Shown: piece by piece, positions 2,897 to 48,279 of the stretch
How the letters are laid out: each line of letters opens with the position of its first letter
How positions within the stretch are numbered: position 1 is the stretch's first letter
DNA from: Amoeboaphelidium protococcarum X5
Taxonomy: Eukaryota; Fungi; Aphelidiomycota
Direction: 5' to 3'
DNA: 64,000 nucleotides
NCBI GenBank assembly: GCA_023515725.1
Contig: JALDTO010000192.1
Location: forward strand, 558,001-622,000
Notes under the pieces: generated by a model
Database searches by the model: none
What the model saw: only the letters and a program-made list of their open reading frames with translations
What the model was told of the DNA's origin: nothing
Made by a program: the position numbers and the translations under genes

Positions 2897-4080
2897 TCAT
2901 AATTAGACTGAATATTAGATCAGATAACCATCATCACTGACAGACACCAGTTTATCCTATTTTTCATTTAGAGCGACTTGCCATACAAGGTCGTAATGTT
3001 CTTACAATGTGAATAGACAGCTCTTAGTGCATAGACTCCATACGCGTACAGTCTTGTCCGAAGATGAGCTGATAAAGTGTACACCGTCTGCCAGCATTTA
3101 GAGTGAAAGTATCCACGGTTTCTTAACAGTACTTTGCGCTGCTGATGAAGTAGCTGGAGACACCAGTGAGGCCATTTTATCAGCATTCACGGGGTCATAA
3201 GCTTCAATCTTTCCAGAATCGCTGCCAGTCAACAGGAGCGATGAATCCCTGGAGAATGCAAGACACCTCACAGGATCATTCTAATGCGATGGCAGAGTGT
3301 GCATCAACTGCATGTCAGAAGAGTTATATATCTGCACAAGGCCAGTGACGGTTCCAATCACTAACATGGCGCCATCGGGACTGTATGCGACACTCTGTAT
3401 AAACTAACCTTTCCCAACTTCTGCTTTGCGCAAACACTTGCCATCAGATACAGAATAAATATTCAACACTCCGCGGTGAGTTCCAGCTGCTATCTGATCA
3501 CCTTTAGGTGAAATCGAAACACACCAAGCATTAGAAGGGCCAACATTGAACCTGTTCTACAATTTGAGACCGCTTTTTGCGTCATTCAACTCCCACGCAG
3601 ATAATTGACCATCCGCAGTATTTGTTAATACCACTACACATTTAATTTTCGTTAAGATTTCTATTATTTATACTTGGCACATATTAAAGTCATACGAGTT
3701 GAGTCGGTCAAATCGCGCAAGTCCATCGATACAACACCAAGATCAGAACTCTTTACCACCTACTCACATTCCATAGTCTCTCCATCCCTACACACAAATA
3801 GTAACAATAAAATTTAGATTCACCAATCCTCATTATAGCGTACCATAATTTAATTTCAGAGCCAACGCCAGCCGTTACAATCTTATTCACTCTGGTAGAC
3901 CATTTCACGCACCAAATTCCACTAGTGTGAGCTACAAAATCAAATGTATACAATCATCAATGCGAGTTGTTAGTTATAGTACAAAATCAAAGCCAACCTT
4001 CTTTGACTGATTTAAAAGTTGAAAGCTACATTAAAAATTTATTATCTTTATGAACGATAAGATCTAAACGTACTTACCAT
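2897..4080 (-). CDS. SKI8: WD40 protein Ski8/WDR61 (about 4 short introns)
   Basis: GKGQFIQSVAYSPDGAMLVIGT, DKTVRVWSL, EHYDLVWQVAL and LVSVSDDG resemble WDR61; ATG|GTAAGT first exon at 4078-4080. Confidence 0.75.
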
Positions 4081-5041: not shown

Positions 5042-5299
5042 ATGCAATTGATCAATACTATTCTGGCTGGTGTCGTCGCCGTGATGACCGTCTCTGCTCA
5101 ACTTCCCCTGTACTGTCCTAACTTGTCTCACTACCACGCTGGTAAACTAACGCTGCAGTAGCAAGGGGCTAGTGGTACCATCTGTACGTATGCAAGCGGT
5201 GCATCCTGTAATTTGAGTCCGGCAGCTTCCGTTTGCTATATTGGCAACAAGCCATATCCTGCGAAGAACAATCCGGATGGTACTGTGACTCTGCTCTGA
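5042..5299 (+). CDS. Small secreted Cys-containing protein (85 aa), candidate effector
   Basis: MQLINTILAGVVAVMTVSA signal peptide, 4 Cys, one in-frame TAG, ends TGA; absent from the ORF track. Confidence 0.75.
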
Positions 5300-6687: not shown

Positions 6688-7465
6688 TCAGTACTGAGAC
6701 ATAATTGCCGTTTCGTTTCCCATGACAGTTCCGCTGTAAGGAATAGTTGCATTCAAAACAGTGGTGCTATTCACCTCAGCCATTGGAAATGTGGTGGTGT
6801 TTGTAATGGAGCCATTTTGGTACATATTTTCAAGCTACATACGTTTCCTCTTTGCAGCGCGACGCGTTCTGTATGCGCATCCAATAGCAACAAGAGTCAG
6901 AATAGCAATCAAACTAGCTGCCAGTATGATGATTAGTTATAAATCAAAACTGAGAACCTGTTGCTATTACTGATTAACAGACACTAGAGTTGTTGTAACG
7001 GCATTATATACCAAAGACGAGGAGAACTAACTTACCACCGTGGGAGCATTGAATTAAATGTTACCAGCGTATGAGGTTGTCTGACCTTACACTTGAGAGA
7101 GTGCATCATTAACTGAAGCCATCGATGCAGTTGAACTTATTGGAGCCAATGATTGCAGCGTATTACTGAATTACAGAGAGACAGAGCTAATCGTATAAGA
7201 TGCAGTTGAATCTGATAAGTCTTAAATTTAAGACGTGGCATTGGTATACAATTACGACATTGATGAGCTAGTAGACGGCAGAGGAGAAGACTATGTGCTC
7301 ACTACAGTGACTAAGGACGCCGCAAAAGCGTTCAAGCTTGACCTGGTCGTGGAGTTAGAAGGAATAGATGTCGTATTCACCATCAAGTTTGAATTAACTC
7401 CAGTTGTTGAGTGGACAATAGTGGAAGTTTATAACTAGGAAGTAGTAGTGGTAGTAGTAGTAGTG

Positions 7466-7547
<82 letters not shown>

Positions 7548-9177
7548 TAGTAGTAGTAGTAGTAGTAGTAGGAGTAGTGGTAGTAGTAGTAGTGGTAGTA
7601 GTAGAAGTCGTAGGCCTAATAGTAGAAGTCGAAATTACAGTAGATAGCACGGAGGTGGTTGTAGCGGCTTGTCCTTGAATAGCCAGTGTCACCACCTGCT
7701 CAGTGCCTCTTTCATTAAACGCAACAAACTTCAAAACAGCAAAAGTATCACCAGAAGATACTCCAAGTTAGATTGAACTCAATCCAGTATTGCCATTTTG
7801 AATTGTGATTTACGGATTAAACGTAATTTCCGACTAATTGTTAAATATTTACGAATTTACTTGAGATCCATTTACAACGCTATAGGCGACAACATTACCG
7901 CGATTGATTACTATCGACTATGAAATTATAGTGATCGGATACTTTGAACCACTTCTGTAGACGGCAATACCTTTCAACAAATCGATTAAAGATCTCGTAG
8001 TACCAACCGTTATGTTTTGTGTGATCGAGCTTTAAGACCAAGCAAATTGTCTCGCCCATGAGCCATAAAAGCGAGAAGGATTAGCAAATTAACGCAACTG
8101 TCCCATACCATCAGTCGTGTTAGAGCTGACACGGAAATACAATATTCCTGAGGCTTCTGCATCGCCCCAAGTGGAGACATAAACATAGTTTCCATACCAA
8201 ACAACTCCGTGTGGCACTTAAGCCGGCACAGAGGCTAATAACGTCACGGGTGCCTGGCTAGGACCAGTGTTTACTCTAATCAGCTAAACTTTCTACAAGT
8301 CTCGGTCAGCATAGAGCATCACATTTTCATCCAACATCAGGATTTAAACAGGCTGAGAAATGACAAATGGCACTGGCACGACATAATTGTTCACTTAGTT
8401 AAAGTTCACAGTGAAATTACTAAAAGCAAAACTAGTATTACCACCTGCATAATACTCTGTAGAGAAGAGGACTTGCCCATTGAAGAAGTCAACACAGCGC
8501 GTAGGATTGTTATTATTTTGCAATTGTTTGATTAAGATCATATCAGACGTCAAGTCCCACATGTATTTTTCACCAGACGAATACGATGCGTAATAGAGAA
8601 AGCCACTATTAACACCAGCCATTCTAGGACCCCATTACTCAACGCCGCCAAGCATAGTTGCATATTTTGTGTTCACCAATACCGGAACATAATTCTTTAT
8701 GTCATACTTTCTGAGATAAGAATCTCCAATCAGATACAAAAAACGGTCCTGGTAATCAATGGCCATGATCATGGCACTATTAATCTAGGTAATTGATACA
8801 ACAACCTATAATATGTTGGAGGCAGACGTTAGCGGCAACTAGATGGAGTACAATTAGAGTCTAGGAGTAGTATAATAACCAGGCTGAGTAGCAGCAATAT
8901 AAAGATAGACTATCTAATTCACGCTGTCGAGCACCATTTCTTAATAAGGATAGTTTCCCGTCGTCACATTCGTTATCAATCTGGGGGCACCTGTCGCAGA
9001 ATCCAAAGAAAATATCGAGCACTATGGCACTTCATGACCACAATTAACCAAGACATTCGATACAATCCTGATTGTCATAGACTGTTGGGGAGCCATACGG
9101 ACTTTTATAGATTGAGAGAGCACGCCATCTGCGATTAACGCAACCTAACACAAAATGAACAAACTAATGATTCTCAT
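6688..9177 (-). CDS. Type I membrane mucin-like surface protein (~829 aa)
   Basis: One TGA-free frame: signal peptide MRIISLFILCQVALIADG, beta-rich ectodomain, poly-Thr/Ser stalk, TM LIIILAASLIAILTLVAIGCAY followed by RTRRAAKRKR. Confidence 0.8.
7438..7605. repeat. (GTA)n/(ACT)n coding microsatellite giving about 50 Thr
   Basis: Near-perfect trinucleotide repeat inside the minus-strand surface-protein gene. Confidence 0.95.
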
Positions 9178-13481: not shown

Positions 13482-16400
13482 TCATATTAATGCCAGCTTT
13501 TCAAGAGTAATCTCTTCGATGCATTCATCCACATAATCGTTATAAAAGTCGACAGCATCACCAAATTCTGCCACAAGATGATCCTTGATCTCCCGTCGAG
13601 TCACAGTATTTAGATCAGCCTCGTGCAGTAGTAACTTGATCTCTTCTTTCAAATCCTCTTTCCCAATGCCAGACATCATTTTCAAAGTCTCATCAGAGTA
13701 GACAGACATAGCCGCAGTAGTTGGCCGAGAGGACATGGTGTACTTTGAGAATCTGCCATTAGAAGATGGCGCGTACTTTGAGGAATAGTCAGATCTAGCC
13801 ATAGATGTAGCACGACTTTGATTGGGCATTCCAGGTGACATAGGAGAAAGATGTGACTTTGGGATGATTGGAGTTCTGTCTTCTCTGAAATTAGTCGGCT
13901 TGAGCAATGCAGGACTTTCAGGACCTTGATTGTGGCTAGCATCAGACCGTTTACGAGGAGAAGATTTCACTGTGAACATACTATCGCGGTTAATTGCCTC
14001 AGGTGGTGTCGGTAGAAGTTTTCCAAACTCACTCGCAGAGGACATGGTATAATTGTCACTGACACGGCAATCTAACTATGGAGCACCATTGTAAGACTCA
14101 AGATCTTAAGCGTGCATCTGAACCGCCACTTGATCTTAACCGCCCTGATTTGCATTTAATTGCTTACGAGATGCAACTTTACGCGCCTAGCATTATTGAG
14201 GTTCAGATAGAACAAAGCTTTGCCATTGTTACAATGTCTTTGCTTCAGCCCTTCTGTTGATATATAGCTAAGAATCTGGTGAGTCTTCCATTGCACACCC
14301 ATGCCTGCCAACAGAACATTTCCATCCATTAGAATCATTACAGTCTATAACACGAATACCAGTACCTGAGAAAATACCTACCAGTGGTATCAAAATTCCA
14401 AAGAGCGGAAATCCAATCGTCAGGTGAAGTGGAACAACCAGACCGTAAACGAAGTTTCCTTTAAGTATCATGATTATCATCAAAAGGATAGAAACCAAAG
14501 CAATGCACCCAACAGATATTACATTCGAAAAATATTGAGGGTTAAGGAGAAACTACGCCAACAGATAGTAGCAGTACGCTGTGGCAGCGGGAAGTAACAT
14601 CATGGATATAGCGTCAAAGAATGCCCATAGTCTTACACCAAATGAAGCATTCTTTTCCATACTGGATGACAAAAGAGCCCATTTTTAATGAAATAAAACC
14701 TTCCATTGAGATGAGAAATCTCTAATTACAGCAATTGAAGGCAATTTTGCAGAGTCAGCCACCTTTATAGACGGATCATAACGATGTTGCATTTGTGAAA
14801 ACTACTTCATGGAAGCTGCAACTAAGGCCTACTCTTCACCTTTCCAGTGACGTACCTTTTTATCGAAGGAGCTCAAATCTTGATACCCATTACTGACCAT
14901 GGACAAGACGCGATGATGCAATAGGCAAGGTGATCCGTCAGAATTTTTCAACTTATACATCACTGCCTTATCGGATTGAATGCACAAAACTCCCAGATAA
15001 CTGCGAAGCAGGCGATTGATATGATGCTCGTCCAGGTAAGCAAAGGTACTCAATGCTTGACCAAAAGAAGATAACGAGGCCTCTGGTTTCGCAATTGGAG
15101 ATACTGATAACAAGTGATGATCATTCTCAAGAGCATGAGTTAGATCTGATATCGCACTTTAGCCAAGCACACAACCAGAATCCAGTGATAGCATACAACT
15201 GAGTTGCAGCAGGTCAATATTAAGTTTTTAATCAATCTACTCAAAAACTTCAAATTCCAGAGCTGACAACTTTGAGGTCCCAGCATTACTTAGCTTGTTC
15301 AACAGCGAGAGAAGTAATACGGTGGAGTCGAGCTTTCCGCGATGTCCCGGTTTATAATGTTCACTTCTATTGCCAACTTTGGTGACAACACAGTAAGGCA
15401 ACTTTACGCCATTAGAATTGTACACGCCGGTGAATACAAGTCCAGCATTCAATCGCCTAGAGCCATTGCCGAGAGATGTGTACTCTTTCACCTGACCATC
15501 AGGGCCATCATAACCAACAGCATCCAATAAATTGTCTTCAGTGTTTGGATTTCCATCGCTGACGGCAAACAGAAAACACCTCTGTCCACTAGCAGACTAC
15601 TATTGAGCAATGGATGATACTGATTTTTTAAGTTATTCCGTAGACTAACCATAACAATGCATCAACACAACCACACTAGATTTTGCTTAGCCTCTACTTT
15701 TAGAGGGGAAGCAACAAAGACCAACAATCAATTTAGGGAGTGAGAACAAGAGGATCAAGCCAGCAAATCCATAGAGCACCGGGTTTATTAAGGCGCAAGA
15801 TGACATTAATGACGTGTTTTGCGTGACACCAGCGAGAAATAGTTTAGACATACACCGCTAGATCTAGTCAGCCTTAGGAACAGAATTGAATTGAGCAGAA
15901 GCATCCTATCCAATATTACTTTACAACAACTGAGTCACCTGCTGTCCGAAGAAGCCAGAAGACTCGTTGAAAGAATTACCATCTTGAAGAGCAATCTATA
16001 GATATGGTGCAACATTATACACATATCCATTGAGCACAATGTATGAGGTTTCCTTTCCACCGCTTCCATTAGATTTCTGTGCCAAAATGTCAGACGTGAT
16101 AACAACGCGTCCCACAGTGGCTACTGAGACGGCTTGACGCGCGGCAGCGCTGAAGAAACACGGTCCACTCGAGCCATTCGGTAGAGGACAATTCTGAAGC
16201 AGCCCAGAGCCAGCAACACGAAAGTTGGAGTCTTCTAGCTTCCTGCGAAGCCATTCATCAGCGACTGGTTGATTGCCACCGACACACTCTTGAATATCAG
16301 GATCAGTATACGTGTTGGATTCTGGTAGACGTCCAAGCAGCGTGAAAGCTGGGAAATTGTCACTCAAATCTTTGCCTCCATTCTGACTAGCAAGGGATTA

Positions 16401-16625
16401 AATGGCTGGATCAGATAATTTACTGGTTTGAATAATTTTACCGTTTGCAATAATGCGGTCATTAACTTATTGCGCCTATCTCAATAGCATGTCGCCATTG
16501 TTACAACCATAAGAAGTGCCCAGCTGTAGTCCGGCTATCAACAGCGCGGATAATATGATAAACGCGAATACTTTCAGTATCCATGCAGGGACACCTGACC
16601 GGTAATTTAGATTTGAATCTTTCAT
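13482..16625 (-). CDS. Division-2 chitin-synthase-like protein (cyt-b5-like region, GT2 core, TMs, DEK-C) with degenerate catalytic motifs; 1047 aa
   Basis: YIVLNGYVYNVAPYL, CFLFAVSDG, YTSLGNGSRRLNAGLVFTGVY, PYCVVTKVG..KPGHRGKLDS, C-terminal DEK-C LLHEADLNTVTRREIKDHL; one frame, no myosin head. Confidence 0.85.
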
Positions 16626-17290: not shown

Positions 17291-19255
17291 ATGCACGTAC
17301 GATTATTGATTGGAATACTAATTATCTGTTTATTGAAGCTCGATAATAATGCGCAAACTGCTAATCCTCCTGCTTAAAGCAAGGCAGGTCCAGTGCAGCA
17401 GAGGCAAGCGCCAACCTAAAAGCCTGCTCAAAGCGTGACTCCTGCAAGGAGAGCGTAAGTTGCTGCCAGTCCATAATAATAGTAATAATAATAATTACCT
17501 AGACCGCCTGCATCTGGTCAGTCAGCGTAGCCGCAAATGCTCGCTCAGAGACAAGCACCTCTCAACGCGTCTGTACCTGCCCAGGATTCCACAGTTGCAC
17601 CGCAACCTTCTGCAGATAGATAAAGTGGCAGTAATGACAACAAGCGTGTGCCGTCATAGGGTCCCCAAGCTGCACCTGCGCGTAAAATTGCGAATCCTCA
17701 GCAGCCGCGCCCAGTTTAGTCTACTGCACCAGCGCCCGTTGCTTAACCAGCTGCTGCCGACGCTCGACCTGCGCCAGTCGCTGATCAACCTAAAGCGCCA
17801 GAGTAACAAAAGTCTATTAATATACCCGAGCCTGTAGTCGCTCCTTCTGAACATGTCAAACCTGAAAATAGAGCTCGCTCATTTGGAGCTGAGACAGAAG
17901 AGATGAAAGGCTAGGCCGTCGGCGATGATAAAGCTGTTGAAAGGTTAGCTGCGCCTGAAGCTACCAAGCCAGAGCCTTAAAAACCTACTGGCGATGATAG
18001 TAAAGAGAGAATGGCTGCAGCTGATCAATCTGTCCAAGAGGAAACAGAGGCGAAATAAGAGCCTCGCAAATTAGCACCTAAAGTGGACGAGACTGTCTCC
18101 ACAGGTGGTACTAGTTCGTAATTGCCTAAGGAGTCTGAGGTGAAAGAGTCACCTCCTTCACCTAGACAAGCTGATCCACCTTTGTCCGCTGATGGTAATA
18201 ATAAAACTGAGACGCGTCCGCCGGTTGCTGAGCCGCCTTCTAAACCTGCCCCTGTTCCAGAGCCTACATAACTTCCAAGTCCTACCTAAAGCGGAGATGA
18301 TCAAAAGCCCAAAGACTCCGCAGCTTAGTAACCTGATATTCCAACACCTCCGTTGAGTGGAAATGAGGCCTCTAACACTGGATCGTCTGCTGGTGGCCTT
18401 AATGGCGGAGAGCAGTAGTAACCAGCTGCTAGTATGCCAGTAGCGAATGAGGCTCCTCAAGGGTAGGTCGCTGCTCCGTTAGAGAATTAGCTACCATAGT
18501 AATCATAGCAATTTAACAATTCTGCGCCTGCACAGATGGCGTAGCCACCATCGTAGGTGTAACCAGCGAACACCACTGTAGCAGAGAATCAAAGCGAGAG
18601 TGTGCCAAAGTCGGCTGCTTCATCCGATGCGTCTGATGTTGCTTAGCAGGATGTAGCTAATAAAGGAGTGAAGGAGCCTACTGTTAAAGAACCTGTCGCT
18701 ACACCTCCTCCTCCTCCTCCGCCTGTGTAACCGCCTGCTGTCCAGCCGTCTCCCCCTTAACCTCTTGCTCCGCCTCAAGTTCAATTGCCACCACCACCGC
18801 CTACTCCTCCAGCTACAAAAGTTGATGAAAAGAAGGAAACTGACAAGGCTTAGTCTCCCATCAGCCAGCCTTAACTCGTCAATCAATCTTAGCCATAAGA
18901 TTCATCATAGTAAAATGTTGAATTCAAAGCAGCATCTATTGACGATGTAGACGCGGTTACCGGATAGCCTCCTAGTTCTCAGGTCATTGCAGAACGAATC
19001 AAGAAGCTCCCTAACTAAGGATGGTCTAACTTTAGACGCGCGGGACCTCAATAGTAATCAGAGTCAGGAAAATAAGCACCTGCATCCTTCGGAGTATCAT
19101 CTGCTGGTGGCCTGGTTAAAGATGAGAAAACTGGTGAAAGAAAGAGGGGTCCTCTGACAATAACTCAAGCTGACATCTCCGGAGGTTCTAATCATTGTAC
19201 AATTTCCATTCTATCAGCGTCTATAGCAGTTTTATTATCGTTACTGCTTCTTTGA
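17291..19255 (+). CDS. Secreted Pro/Gln/Ala-rich low-complexity protein with putative GPI signal (654 aa)
   Basis: N-terminal MHVRLLIGILIICLL; C-terminal SGGSNHCTISILSASIAVLLSLLLL*; poly-Q encoded by TAA/TAG. Confidence 0.75.
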
Positions 19256-42942: not shown

Positions 42943-43200
42943 ATGTCAGCGCTATTTCCGTAGAATAAATGGGACGGTCCTCGATTTAAAGACCCTTGGT
43001 ATAGAGCTGAGGAGTGGAGATACAAACACCCATTGGTGGCGAGCAAGTTCACATGGAGATAATTGCTCCCTGGATTTGGATATGCCAGTGCTGCGTTCGC
43101 TGTCTACTGCGTCGCTGATTACTTTCTTTTTGCAGATAAGCACGGTCATCATGGGCACTCACATAACGATGGGAAATCGTCTCATGGAGAGAAGCATTGA
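42943..43200 (+). CDS. NDUFB3: Complex I accessory subunit NDUFB3 (B12)
   Basis: KDPWYRAEEWRY, LLPGFGYASAAFAVYCVADY, His-rich tail. Confidence 0.88.
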
Positions 43201-43358
43201 ACTATTATTATACTGAAGAATACATCTTATTCAATGTAGAAAGGTTTTCAACTTGTAATCTTTGATCTATATGTATATATTTAGATAGCCTGAGAGGTAA
43301 GGAAGTCATTTCATGTTAGATGGTTGGTTTATAGATGAGTTCGCGATAGAGTAAAAGC

Positions 43359-44021
43359 TCACAACTTGAACGAGTCGTTAGAGGCAGATGAAGACTGCAA
43401 TTGATGACCGTATTTTTCTGCCTATCGAAGTTTTTACGCGCTTCCTGTTAGAATTGGTATCTACATAATTGGAGTACATTATTAAACGGCAGGTATGAGT
43501 ACATTAGGTGAAAATTCTGCGGTGGTAGTATGGGAAACTTACCCATTATCTCGGATTCGCTGGATTCATCACCCAATCCATGTCTGATACGTTAGGCTAC
43601 AAGCTGAACAACATATTGAACTGCCCAGTGCGCACAATACTACCACCATCTTTCTTCACATACACTGAGATTTAATCTTTGAACAGCCTAGTGCGGCCAC
43701 CACTTATTCGCACAATATCCATGTGCTTAAATGCAAGTCCGGCCTCACCAACCAGATATAAAGTGACACTTCCCGACGAGTCACTCAACGTGAACTGGTA
43801 GAACTCCAAATCCTGACCACCTCTACTAGCCTCCTACTTCACATCAGTTATTATACCACACAGTTACAAGCTAGTCATATTTGGTCTAACATGCGCTACA
43901 TTTATAATGATGAGAATATAGGTAAATTATAAATCATAAATGTGAACAGATCGATTCTGATTTGGCGAGACTTACCTATAGGTATGCCATAATCAGGTTG
44001 CCAGTCTCCAGCAACAGGCAT
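43359..44021 (-). CDS. SOSS-B/NABP (hSSB1-like) OB-fold ssDNA-binding protein; introns 43896-43975 and about 43461-43542
   Basis: IAHVRPNMTSLQLCGII, LSDSSGSVTLYL..DIVRISGG, GSIVRTGQFNMLFSLQPNVS. Confidence 0.75.
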
Positions 44022-44285
44022 AGGTACCCGCAAATCTTCCGGGACAAAGGAGAAAACTTTTTAATAATTGGGATGCGACATTTAATACACAGTTAATGGC
44101 TCTATTTGAAGAAGAATAATTAGAGTTTATGGTATTATGCTGGCTGTAGCTTGATCGAAATTGTATGGTAAAGTGGATCTCGACTAATGAAATCCCCCTA
44201 ATTTTTGTCGCTTTTTACTGTAAAACACAGTAAGCCGCTCGCTTTAATAAAGGACTGCTATAGCGCGCGGTATTTGTAGACGCTG

Positions 44286-45506
44286 ATGATGTAGCTCTAC
44301 ACTGTTTTTGTGCTGATTTTACTTCTATAGCTAAGCCATTCAAGGCTATTGGATATTTGCAGTCATAATTTGAAGAATTTTGGCATCACCAAGGCATAAT
44401 CATATTATGGTCGCCTGTTGCAAGTTGTGATTGATGAGATCCTGGACTGCGACGTGTTTATAGCGCAAGAGATTCAAGATGTCAGCTTTCAGGTGATCAA
44501 TTTAATGCTGGCTCGTCTAAACGAAAGATCTGGAGATGATCCGTACAATATAGCGATTAGTCCTCAGCTGGGAGAGGGAGGTTATCAAGAATAGATGATC
44601 GTATTTTATAAAAGTCGCTCAGTGCAATACCTGTTAGGTAAAGAAGTGAAGACTGCAGGCGTCAAGAGAAATCCTTACGCGATTGTATTTGAAGCGCGTC
44701 CAGACGCTCGTGAGTTGCAATAATAGCGGAAGCAGCAGAATGGATGGAGTAGAATTTTTAGTTTTGGCAGGTAAAAGGTGCGTAAACCATTTCGCTTTAT
44801 GCTACTTACTACGCACGTCTCACCAAAAGATGCTCCGGAGGAATTGCGATCACTGTCTTTTAGGTACATGAATATTTTACGTAGTGATCTTGCCTCTGAT
44901 CTGTCTAACATTGTTCTTATTGGAGACCTTAACGCTGACGCGCCATATTTGACCATTGCTGATAAATCTAAAATTCCGTTATTTGACCGGTCCAAATATA
45001 ATAATATTATCATCGGTGATAATTCAATGACAAAGGAGAATGTACCGAAAATGCTGGACCGTGCATTTACTCACAAATTACTTGAGGAGTCGATTGTTCC
45101 TCTGTCTGGACATGTGGTAAAGATTGGATCCCGCGATTTTGATTACGTTCGTATGAGGGGACTTACTGCATAGTAAATTAGTGATCACTACGCGATAAGA
45201 TTTTAATTGGACACTTCCAAAGTGATCGAAGAAACTCTAGCGGATCAGGCGAATGATCTCAATATGGCCTTTGCTGATATGAAGTTGAGTGAAGCTGTGT
45301 CAGATATTGAACAGCGATCACGCTCTATTGCAGATCCCGACAGAACAGCTTTTAAGAATAAGCCGGTAAAGCGCGATGTATCCGCGTAAGCATTGCTTAG
45401 AGTTCCAGGGAAATTTCAAATACCTCATTCGCAATCTTTAAATCGACGATTCAACTCAAGAGTGTTTGGCTAAAGCAGCGCTGTGCCTAAAATAATGACT
45501 CTATGA
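44286..45506 (+). CDS. Secreted DNase I-family nuclease, paralog A (406 aa)
   Basis: Signal peptide; ICSHNLKNFG, AQEIQD, YQEQMIVFY, KRNPY, THVSP, GDLNAD, LDR, SDHY. Confidence 0.85.
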
Positions 45507-45717
45507 TAATCCATTATATTTTGCAATCTTAGTGTTCTAGTTAACTAATTTCCACATCGTGTCAACTTTAATCTGAGCCATAGTGTTCAGTAATGGTGTG
45601 GCGTTTGTGAAACTAATCGATTTACGGGGCGCGTGTGGCGCATTCTGAACAAAGTCTTGATTATCGCAGTACAAAGCATCTTTTACATCTCACATTGAAC
45701 CTGATTCAACTAATAGT

Positions 45718-47118
45718 ATGCAAGTCGTACATGTGGTTGTGAGTCTCCTGGCCGCTATCGCTGCTGTATGTGCTAGTCACATTAAGGTTTGTAGTCATAA
45801 TCTACAGCGCTTTGGGCCATTGAAAGTTCAGTAATATGATGGGAAGATTTTATCTGTGATCCTGCAGGAGATAGCCTCATGTGATATCTTCATAGCTCTG
45901 GAGATGACTGATTTATCATAAAAGTCTTATCAGATCTTGCAATAGCAGCTTTATAACCGCTATAGAAAGTTGAAGTTTCTCTCAATACTGAGTCCTATGG
46001 TTGGTAGCGGTCGATATACGGAGCAGGTGGCCGTATTCTACCGCGCGGATAAAGTTGAACTCATTGGTAGCGCAGAGTTGCAGATTGAAGACGCGAATCG
46101 TAACCCGTATGCTGTAAAGTTCCAAGTTAAGTAAGGTTTTTGGTTCCCCGTGTACTTTAAGTTTATGCTCATCTGCGTGCATACCAGTCCAGACAATGTC
46201 CTAAAAGAGATGAAAGGACTGGACCAGCGATACTCATCTCTACTCAACTAAGAGGTGTACAATGACTACTCATCCATAGTGATCGTTGGGGATCTTAATG
46301 CTGACACGCCGAGTCTTACAGTTGAGGATAAGAAATCTTTGTAGATGTTCGACACGAACAAGTATAATGAGATTATAACGGATGGCGGATCGACAATGAC
46401 GCAAGGCGCGACTGTGAAGAAGTATGACCGTGCCTTTACTCATTAAGTGTTTAAGCACTCAATAGTACCTCAGTCAGGCCGAGTGATGCGCATCGGATCA
46501 CCTGAAGTTCGCGGCATTAATATGCATAACCTGTATCCTAGAATGATTAGTGATCATTATGCTATAATGTTTACTCTGGATACCTCTAAGGTGATTCGCG
46601 ATGTGCGCAAGGAGATGGAGGTATACAAGCAGGTCATTAAGGCTAAGAAGGCTGAGGAGCTGCGTCAATTGCGCTTGCTATAGAAATAGGCTTCACAGTA
46701 GGCCAAACTGCAGTTAAAGAAGTTGGAAGACTTGTAAAAGTTGAAATAGCGTCCGTAATAAGTACCGCAATCGTCTAGATAAGCTGAACGCGAAAGTATA
46801 GTTCCTGAATCAATGCTTGAAGCCTTGCCAGTCGCTCCAATGAAGTAATAGAGCATTAGCAAAAGTAAATCCGCGCCGAAAGCTCGTTCATAAATTAATT
46901 TGAAGCCTGTTATCAAGCCTATGAAATAAGAGCAGTCTTCGTAAAGAGAGAAGAGAAGGCGAAAGCGCCCTGTTAGTTATGCTGACGACGATGATATTTC
47001 AATTGGAGACGATGCTGAATATGAGACAGATGGTGACTTGAGAAAAGGTACTAATGACGATCCAGATTTTGATTTGAAAGAAATTGCATATATGGATGAA
47101 GGATATCAGTCCGAATGA
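45718..47118 (+). CDS. Secreted DNase I-family nuclease, paralog B (466 aa) with coiled coil, NLS-like motif and acidic tail
   Basis: Signal peptide MQVVHVVVSLLAAIAAVCA; CSHNLQRFG, YTEQVAVFY, RNPY, VHTSP, GDLNAD, YDR, SDHY; tail REKRRRKRPVSYADDDD. Confidence 0.85.
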
Positions 47119-47157
47119 AGCAAATTAATGCATAATGAATATATTCAATAAGAGCAT

Positions 47158-48279
47158 TCAATTAACTTTACTTTTAGCCTTGGTTTATCTAATCCCTCCA
47201 TTATTACCATTGGCATCTTTAGAACTAGCTTTAGAAGTATTCAGACTCTAGACTATTTTAGATCTTCGTGTCATGAAAGCTTCTAAGCCAATGCCAGTAA
47301 AAACAACACCGACAGCGATCCATTGACTGAGATTAAGTTCATGATTAAACCAGAACACGGACAGTATCATGGACAGCATCTTTCGAGTGACATTAACCGT
47401 AACGAGAACCAGAGAGCCAAATCTCTCCAGAGTGTAAAAAATGAACAATTATCCTACTGATCCAAAGAAGCCAAATATCACGACATCGACCACAGAATCT
47501 GGATAAGTGGACAAGAACTTCAAAGCTTCTAGCAATGCATTTGAGCCGTCCGCATTCATAATAGGAGTAACTGCACCCAGGTAGAGTGACATCAAGAGCG
47601 ATGATATGAGATTCATGTAAAACATCATATGTGCACCGTTCACCTCTTTGTACCGACTAAAGATATTATCCTATGTACTGTTGGTAACTCCATCAAGGAG
47701 CAGATTGATAGCTAGGAGAACAAGTCCATACACGCTGCTTTATCGCGCATCGACCGTACCAGGCTTAGTGGGATGCATGAAGGTGAATATACACACGCCG
47801 GCAGTGATCAAAAGAACACTAGCATACTTGTACCATTCGTGAACTTTGCGATAGAGTACATAGCTCATTATGATAACTGGAAGCAGTTTACAGCTCTTGG
47901 CTAGAATCATTGTGGGATAATCAACATGCTTCAGACTCTCATAGCCAAATGGAGATGCAATCGTAGAGAGAACGGCCACCTTGACAAAATCCAGCAAGAG
48001 TTGAGCGGATGGCTTTAAAAGTAGAGATTCAGATTACTATGCAACTTTTCCAGTTGGCGTTCGCCGCTATCTTAAATACATATATACGATAGACACTATG
48101 CTGGCGATGAATGCTTGCACACAATTCAAGAACACGAAATGCTTAAAATAAGCTGGCTAATGCTACTTCAAATGGTCATCATGCGCATAGTACGGCGTAG
48201 TGGACACCCGCTCCTACAGCAATCCCCAAGACAGGAAGCATCCATAAATTCCAGCGATACAAAATGCTAATTCATACAT
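47158..48279 (-). CDS. HUT1: Nucleotide-sugar transporter Hut1/SLC35B1
   Basis: GIYGCFLSWGLLQERV, SLKHVDYPTMILAKSCKLLPV, FGSLVLVTVNVTRKM, KxKxx end. Confidence 0.92.

Follow-up and report, generated by a model that had tools for sequence, protein, structure and literature searches.

The downstream member of a tandem pair of DNase I-like genes, hereafter paralog B, encodes a protein that we propose is a secreted nuclease aimed at chromatin in the nucleus of the algal host. Judging from its sequence features, we place the chance that this reading is correct at just below even. Specifically, the protein would be exported into the algal cell, either past the host plasma membrane or after this membrane has fragmented, and a KRRRKR run in its C-terminal tail would mediate its import into the nucleus of the host by way of importin. 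There, acidic-aromatic motifs at the end of the tail would grip histones H2A-H2B in the fashion of DEF/Y chaperones, and the nuclease domain would cut host chromatin. Such an attack might serve both to silence the host and, ahead of its consumption, to release phosphate and nucleotides.

Gene, leader and nuclease domain of paralog B

Paralog B is a single 466-amino-acid open reading frame (ORF; positions 45718-47118, forward strand) within the 64,000-nucleotide stretch of DNA that was analyzed, here called the window. The frame is intact only under NCBI code 6, in which TAA and TAG specify glutamine. Translation with table 11 was rejected, because it yields short ORFs and breaks the gene for paralog B into fragments, whereas table 6 yields long, full conserved genes. 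The 466-residue translation is identical to an NCBI protein model, as is the 406-residue translation of the upstream paralog A. Copies of paralog B with 93-94% identity carry the name Amoeboaphelidium protococcarum, an aphelid parasitoid of green algae. Across positions 43200-47500, each of the single DNA runs X1 and X5 holds two versions of the locus that differ by several percent and have similar depth, a pattern like that of a genome that is hybrid or has been duplicated.

The original prediction placed a signal peptide on paralog B, and a hydrophobic leader is indeed present at amino acids 1-19 (45718-45774), where the best 10-residue Kyte-Doolittle mean is 2.9. This predicted signal peptide aligns with the leader of DNase I, and its end coincides with the first residues of the mature DNase I, with AVCA↓SH proposed by eye as the cleavage site. 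Its hydrophobicity is retained in all three copies of paralog B. Moreover, no leaderless start is available, because the next in-frame methionine, M63, comes only behind the catalytic residue E62 and within the fold itself.

Both the retained leader and the position of M63 argue against action of the enzyme in the parasite's own nucleus, which would require that the leader be bypassed or that the protein return from the endoplasmic reticulum. A role of this kind, for example in the removal of excess nuclei or DNA when spores are cleaved, would agree with the NLS-like run and the chromatin-protein-like acidic end described below, and DNase1L3, for which such action in apoptosis has been proposed, offers a precedent. 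The missing cysteines, also described below, fit any reducing compartment. We nevertheless regard an own-nucleus function as very improbable.

The assignment to the DNase I family draws on several lines of evidence for the domain at amino acids 20-289 (45775-46584). Among PDB sequences, the top match is DNase gamma (7KIU, E 2.7e-16), followed by DNase I. A Foldseek search with a structure model (mean pLDDT 80) of P0003, a copy with 93% identity, returns DNase I and DNase1L3 chains exclusively in its first ten ranks (E 2e-23 to 2e-19; TM(target) 0.84-0.89 for DNase I), and the next family appears at E 1.7e-13. The protein encoded in the window also carries E62, R128, H155, D192, N194, D237, S278, D279 and H280, none of which varies across the 58 aligned rows, as well as N28. 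Neither paralog reaches the curated cut-off of 24.5 bits for the Pfam family Exo_endo_phos (13.6 bits for B and 21.8 for A), which we read as divergence because the structure and PDB sequence matches are clear. By its modeled fold and its active site, paralog B belongs to the DNase I family within the EEP superfamily. A homodimer prediction for amino acids 20-348 of copy P0003 returned a score of 0.00, which is evidence neither way.

Structure, constraint and motifs of the C-terminal tail

Paralog B continues for 177 residues beyond the nuclease domain. The first segment of this tail (amino acids 290-343, 46585-46746), named a K/Q coiled coil in the original prediction, is a long K/Q/E-rich alpha helix of about 50 residues in two AlphaFold models, spanning residues 290-343 in one and residues 296-343 (pLDDT 90-98) in the other, which is of copy P0003. 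The helix thus stands as a prediction, whereas the coiled coil is unsupported, because the heptad pattern is weak and even the best register has hydrophobic residues at only 8 of 17 a/d positions. The helix is probably a spacer. Disorder follows it for about 120 residues as judged by pLDDT, first in a mildly basic linker (amino acids 344-409, 46747-46944; pLDDT mostly <50). The next segment, REKRRRKRPVSYADDDD, starts at 46945 as predicted (amino acids 410-426, 46945-46995) and combines by pattern and Pfam comparison a classical-NLS-like run, a V-x-Y motif and KR/RR sites. It overlaps an acidic end (amino acids 422-466, 46981-47118) that contains the predicted DDPDF (amino acids 447-451, 47056-47070) and is closed by a TGA codon.

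This tail is coding and partly constrained. Among the three copies, 4 of 53 helix positions are variable, and the linker in other copies carries two 9-nucleotide insertions, both in frame. Ratios of replacement to synonymous change, derived from 40 of 44 listed differences that were pooled over runs and left uncorrected for kinship, vary along the tail. Amino acids 406-434 show six synonymous and two replacement differences (pN/pS 0.09), and amino acids 352-405 of the linker show ten of each (pN/pS 0.28). The distal acidic part is fast-changing, with three synonymous and nine replacement differences (pN/pS 0.66) and with 10 of 32 positions variable in amino acids 435-466.

Contigs from runs X6 and X7 behave as RNA, because they contain a CT..AC joint in a neighboring minus-strand gene that is absent from the DNA runs X1 and X5; the RNA-like nature of X6 and X7 is judged from this splice joint. 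One 1,656-nucleotide contig in each of these runs extends unspliced from 46324 through the whole tail, and gives no single transcript because it continues into the convergent neighbor. This neighbor encodes a UAA-family nucleotide-sugar transporter and ends at 47158, leaving 40 nucleotides between the two gene ends. The RNA-like contigs join across both, so the 3′ ends of the two genes probably overlap. A further gene nearby (43306-44089, reverse strand) encodes an OB-fold, single-strand-binding-like protein with introns at 43896-43975 and 43461-43542 that appear as CT..AC joints, and one ORF call runs through the second intron.

The original prediction of a strong monopartite NLS agrees with what we observe, in that all three protein copies contain KRRR at residues 412-415, which fits the K-[KR]-x-[KR] core and lies in a disordered region, making it a predicted import signal. 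A natural variant, K416N, leaves this core unaffected; asparagine is present in copy P0004 and in contigs of three of the four runs. In 20,000 shuffles of amino acids 344-466, seven K/R in eight residues arise in 0.1% of cases, and the basic-V-x-Y-x-acid pattern arises in 0.09-0.6% of shuffles of the same region, although both patterns were picked post hoc. Paralog B alone, out of 38 ORFs in the window (one of them read on the wrong strand), carries a run of six K/R or the basic-V-x-Y-x-acid pattern.

The likeness of this segment to chromatin proteins that had been proposed earlier, namely the shugoshin C-motif and the Top2 tail, fares poorly. A Pfam search with the last 72 amino acids of paralog B finds one family, Shugoshin_C (PF07557), at E 0.12, and the match covers profile positions 2-14 of 24 and scores 12.6 bits against a cut-off of 23.3. 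Thus half a motif is matched: the basic run and the V-x-Y that follows it are shared with the SGO motif, whereas the second half of the profile and other shugoshin features are absent from paralog B. None of 25 control fragments matches Shugoshin_C, but several match apparently unrelated families at E 0.009-0.14, and a score of this size is therefore what chance produces. For Top2, no match appears at E values up to 10 in Pfam or PDB sequences, although short motifs can escape both searches.

For the acidic part, a closer functional parallel than shugoshin may be the DEF/Y motif of H2A-H2B chaperones, although the fit by analogy is approximate. Four D/E-x-x-F/Y motifs are present in this end (DAEY at 432, DPDF at 448, EIAY at 455 and DEGY at 460), a count with P 0.005-0.015 against shuffles for a motif picked post hoc. 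The eight anchor residues of these motifs are identical in all three protein copies. Written as DDAEY, DDPDF, EIAY and DEGY, they are near matches to the DEF/Y definition of consecutive D/E before an aromatic residue. DEF/Y motifs bind H2A-H2B, and the Epstein-Barr virus protein BKRF4 mimics them, although flanking DEF/Y motifs in BKRF4 are unable to replace the key one (PMC6544321, PMC9477414). Paralog B resembles Spt16, Chz1, Swr1, YL1, ANP32E and BKRF4 in having an acidic disordered stretch with repeated acid-then-aromatic anchors. It shares no sequence homology with these binders and its motifs are approximate, and none of the binders is fused to a nuclease in the excerpts of these two reports.

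Might the tail be a lineage-specific low-complexity extension that has no targeting role and whose motifs arose by chance? No tail homologue is found among 7,994 scored candidates, save the 93% identical copy, and the best-matching stretch ends before residue 335 in all 150 listed representatives of the 537 relatives at E<=0.001. In JGI metagenomes, 26 distant loci with 22-34% identity match up to residue 314 at most. Neither the candidates nor the listed representatives nor the JGI metagenomes thus supplied an orthologue sharing this tail by which deep conservation could be gauged. Tails of at least 60 residues, of many kinds, occur in 43 of 148 listed relatives. These findings, together with the post hoc choice of patterns, would suit an extension of this sort. 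The low pN/pS of amino acids 406-434, the in-frame indels, the unchanged aromatic anchors and the rarity of the basic run in shuffles (P 0.001) all speak against it, and we consider chance the least probable of the explanations weighed here.

The earlier reading of the basic run as an NLS omitted that this run is also the sole KR/RR cluster of paralog B. All four KR/RR sites of the protein sit within it, and REKR is retained in all three copies. Many effectors of fungi are processed by Kex2 at KR, RR or LxxR sites (PMC8528282). If the run were instead a kexin- or furin-type cut site, then cleavage after REKR in the course of secretion would free an acidic (net -11), DNA-mimicking safety peptide and leave behind an active and strongly basic (net +20) nuclease, and the likeness to an NLS would be incidental. 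Like the Kex2-processed fungal effectors (K2PP), paralog B has a signal peptide and a disordered segment with KR/RR sites. However, the residues after the possible cuts are RR, RK, KR or PV, whereas cleaved Kex2 sites favor acidic or small residues after the cut and disfavor basic ones (PMC2515848). The sites of paralog B should thus be poor kexin substrates, because basic residues trail the possible cuts. Known effector pro-domains are also typically N-terminal (PMC8528282), and overall we find the processing explanation quite unlikely for this protein.

Paralog A (44286-45506, forward strand; supported by both the ORF and the NCBI model), by comparison, is a better fit to the K2PP pattern. 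This 406-residue tandem copy comprises a leader, a DNase I domain that is 37% identical to that of paralog B, and a tail of its own. The basic insertion reported for it is confirmed at 44727-44789 as 22 basic and aromatic residues in a loop of the nuclease domain. Paralog A, said in the original prediction to lack the tail of paralog B, has no K-[KR]-x-[KR], but it is not tail-less, as it ends in a different tail of 96 amino acids. Two kexin-type sites occur in this tail, PVKR↓DV (45369-45374) and LNRR↓FN, and both are retained in two of two copies, the second being P0006. The first matches the favorable acidic/small P1′/P2′ preference, so the same preference that argues against cutting in paralog B argues for cutting here, which suggests that the tail of paralog A is trimmed during secretion. 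Different destinations for the two proteins, as originally proposed, are plausible because paralog A is without the NLS pattern and has two good kexin-type sites.

The cysteine pair and relatives of the two paralogs

Most secreted members of the family retain a cysteine pair, which we take to be their structural disulfide. It is replaced by T and K in paralog B, and by A and K in paralog A. This loss in both paralogs is a new observation of the present analysis, and leaderless forms are often likewise without the pair. Specifically, both cysteines are retained in 102 of 111 leader-bearing relatives versus 13 of 30 leaderless ones (Fisher P 4e-8, with rows that are not independent and kinship uncorrected). 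These counts come from a domain alignment of 150 rows, from which 6 rows were removed as aphelid or duplicate and 3 because of gaps, and in which leaders were called crudely. Nine leader-bearing relatives also go without the pair. No N-glycosylation sequon is present in either paralog, and 23 of the 111 leader-bearing relatives have none either.

Loss of the pair from proteins that keep a leader fits, at the level of sequence, export of the enzyme to a reducing compartment as its place of work, and it counts independently toward such a site of action. The change is not specific to the bearer of the NLS, since paralog A shares it.

The same losses bear on the possibility that paralog B is a digestive chromatinase, acting in the food vacuole or in the dying host without any import. 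Its tail would then only aid digestion of protein-bound DNA, the basic part holding DNA and the acidic part removing histones, in the way that heparin assists DNase1. In aphelids, the contents of the host are taken up into a central vacuole (PMC3975115, PMC3577820). The digestion of complexed DNA by DNase1L3 outside cells has been attributed to its basic NLS tail, although one study disputes this, and polyanions promote chromatin digestion by DNase1 (PMC8323900, PMC10242134). On the other hand, a luminal DNase I would not ordinarily have lost both its cysteine pair and its sequons, and a disordered tail of 120 residues would be exposed to vacuolar proteases. Those DNase1 enzymes that have been assayed work best at pH 6.5-8 (PMC8323900, PMC10242134). 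A digestive role therefore has some merit, but we judge it unlikely.

DNase1L3 also sets a limit on what the combination of leader and NLS implies. The original prediction held that this combination makes most sense if the protein acts in the nucleus of another cell. This is too strong, because DNase1L3 has a signal peptide and NLSs, and clears extracellular chromatin (PMC8323900, PMC10242134). What stands is that the basic run nearly equals an NLS known from a secreted parasite protein, considered below, and that the cysteine loss fits work in a reducing compartment. DNase1L3 (DNase gamma, 7KIU) resembles paralog B in the DNase I fold and active site, the signal peptide, the basic C-terminal NLS and chromatin as the likely substrate. 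The two are about 25% identical, and they differ in that DNase1L3 keeps the cysteine pair, whereas paralog B does not and has a 177-residue tail that includes a long helix and turns acidic at its end.

Phylogenetic trees of 90 and 60 rows place paralogs A and B in a long-stemmed clade of their own (support 100) whose sister is unsupported. Orthology with DNase1L3 was rejected, since paralog B does not group with vertebrate DNase1L3 in these trees and its tail is long and acidic at its end. The NLS of paralog B thus probably arose independently of that of DNase1L3, given that the trees support no kinship.

A similar plan is evident in a metagenomic DNase, P0017/P0156 (ENA; contigs of 134 and 138 kb), which has a leader, a DNase I domain, a basic linker, an acidic stretch and a KKRKR...KKKSR end, and which is among the nine leader-bearing relatives that have no cysteine pair. 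Among 148 listed relatives, 16 of which are rows without the end motif that defines the tail, P0017 alone combines an acidic stretch with a strong basic cluster in the tail. It is 25% identical to paralog B and carries the acidic part before the basic part, the reverse of the order in paralog B. It also has a kexin-type site, LVKR↓DC, and may therefore be listed with paralog A in favor of the processing explanation given above.

A pairing of P0017 with the aphelid proteins was considered and rejected, because a FastTree value of 0.887 was unreproduced by IQ-TREE (SH-aLRT 34; 90 rows). No close relatives of P0017 were found, and viral contigs gave 0 matches. Since kinship is unsupported and close relatives are absent from these searches, the shared plan may be convergent, and P0017 is possibly a nucleus-aimed DNase of another organism. 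An alignment query of the viral contigs returned one tail-less DNase, a leader-bearing member of the DNase I family encoded at 2989-3840 of an IMG/VR contig (L027), close to an ORF that looks integrase-like by eye.

Routes to host chromatin and the biology of aphelids

How would a secreted enzyme reach the nucleus of the host? Electron microscopy of strain FD01 places the parasite between the host wall and the host plasma membrane, with this membrane in fragments by day 4 (PMC3577820). FD01 was later named A. occidentale, a congener, and phagocytosis is its proposed mode of nutrition (PMC3577820, PMC3975115). Because the parasite sits outside the host membrane in this congener, a secreted enzyme needs a crossing step, which the original prediction also passed over. 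No translocation motif was found in paralog B.

A precedent for such a route comes from schistosomes. H-IPSE is a secreted schistosome protein with the sequence SKRRRKY that enters host cells and nuclei (PMC5695104), and this sequence is nearly identical to the basic run of paralog B. H-IPSE and M-IPSE, the 'infiltrins' of Schistosoma, resemble paralog B in being secreted by a parasite and in having a monopartite C-terminal NLS. They differ in that their host is an animal, that they are not reported as nucleases in the excerpts of PMC5695104, and that their behavior is shown by experiment, whereas that of paralog B is a prediction.

A fuller version of the proposal that paralog B is aimed at host chromatin would make it the first candidate for a host-nucleus nuclease effector of an aphelid. 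On this account, the enzyme would have shed its luminal disulfide and gained a tail for chromatin attack, composed of a spacer helix, an NLS and histone-chaperone-mimicking anchors; the algal nucleus would be destroyed before phagocytosis, and P0017 would have reached the same plan independently. This version is tentative and on the whole somewhat unlikely.

The word 'DNase' is absent from the text and one supplementary file of a dual-transcriptome study (PMC8657485), in which effectors were matched by similarity to known ones, and 'nuclease' is absent from PMC11767097. Our literature searches, whose coverage lay outside the genome paper of the species and its supplements, returned nothing related for Amoeboaphelidium protococcarum together with nuclease, nor, by title and start of abstract among the papers listed, for a secreted parasite DNase I with an NLS.

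Other genes in the window encode candidate surface or effector proteins, as judged from their sequences. All three have a leader and no Pfam match: a cysteine-rich protein of 85 amino acids (5042-5299, forward strand), a Thr-rich, mucin-like membrane protein (6688-9177, reverse strand) and a protein rich in Pro and Gln whose C-terminus is hydrophobic (17291-19255, forward strand). The window also encodes a chitin synthase-like protein (13482-16625, reverse strand) with Chitin_synth_2, CHS4 and DEK_C matches. EDR and QRRRW are chitin synthase motifs, and neither was seen by eye in this protein, which may be a catalytically dead paralog.

Paralog B is a concrete candidate for how aphelids disable the algal cell, a process about which little is known. 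It bears on whether phagotrophic relatives of fungi use translocated effectors, and it does so in a pest of algal mass culture. If its acidic anchors do bind H2A-H2B, then paralog B would represent a case in which nature has fused a nuclease to a mimic of histone chaperones.
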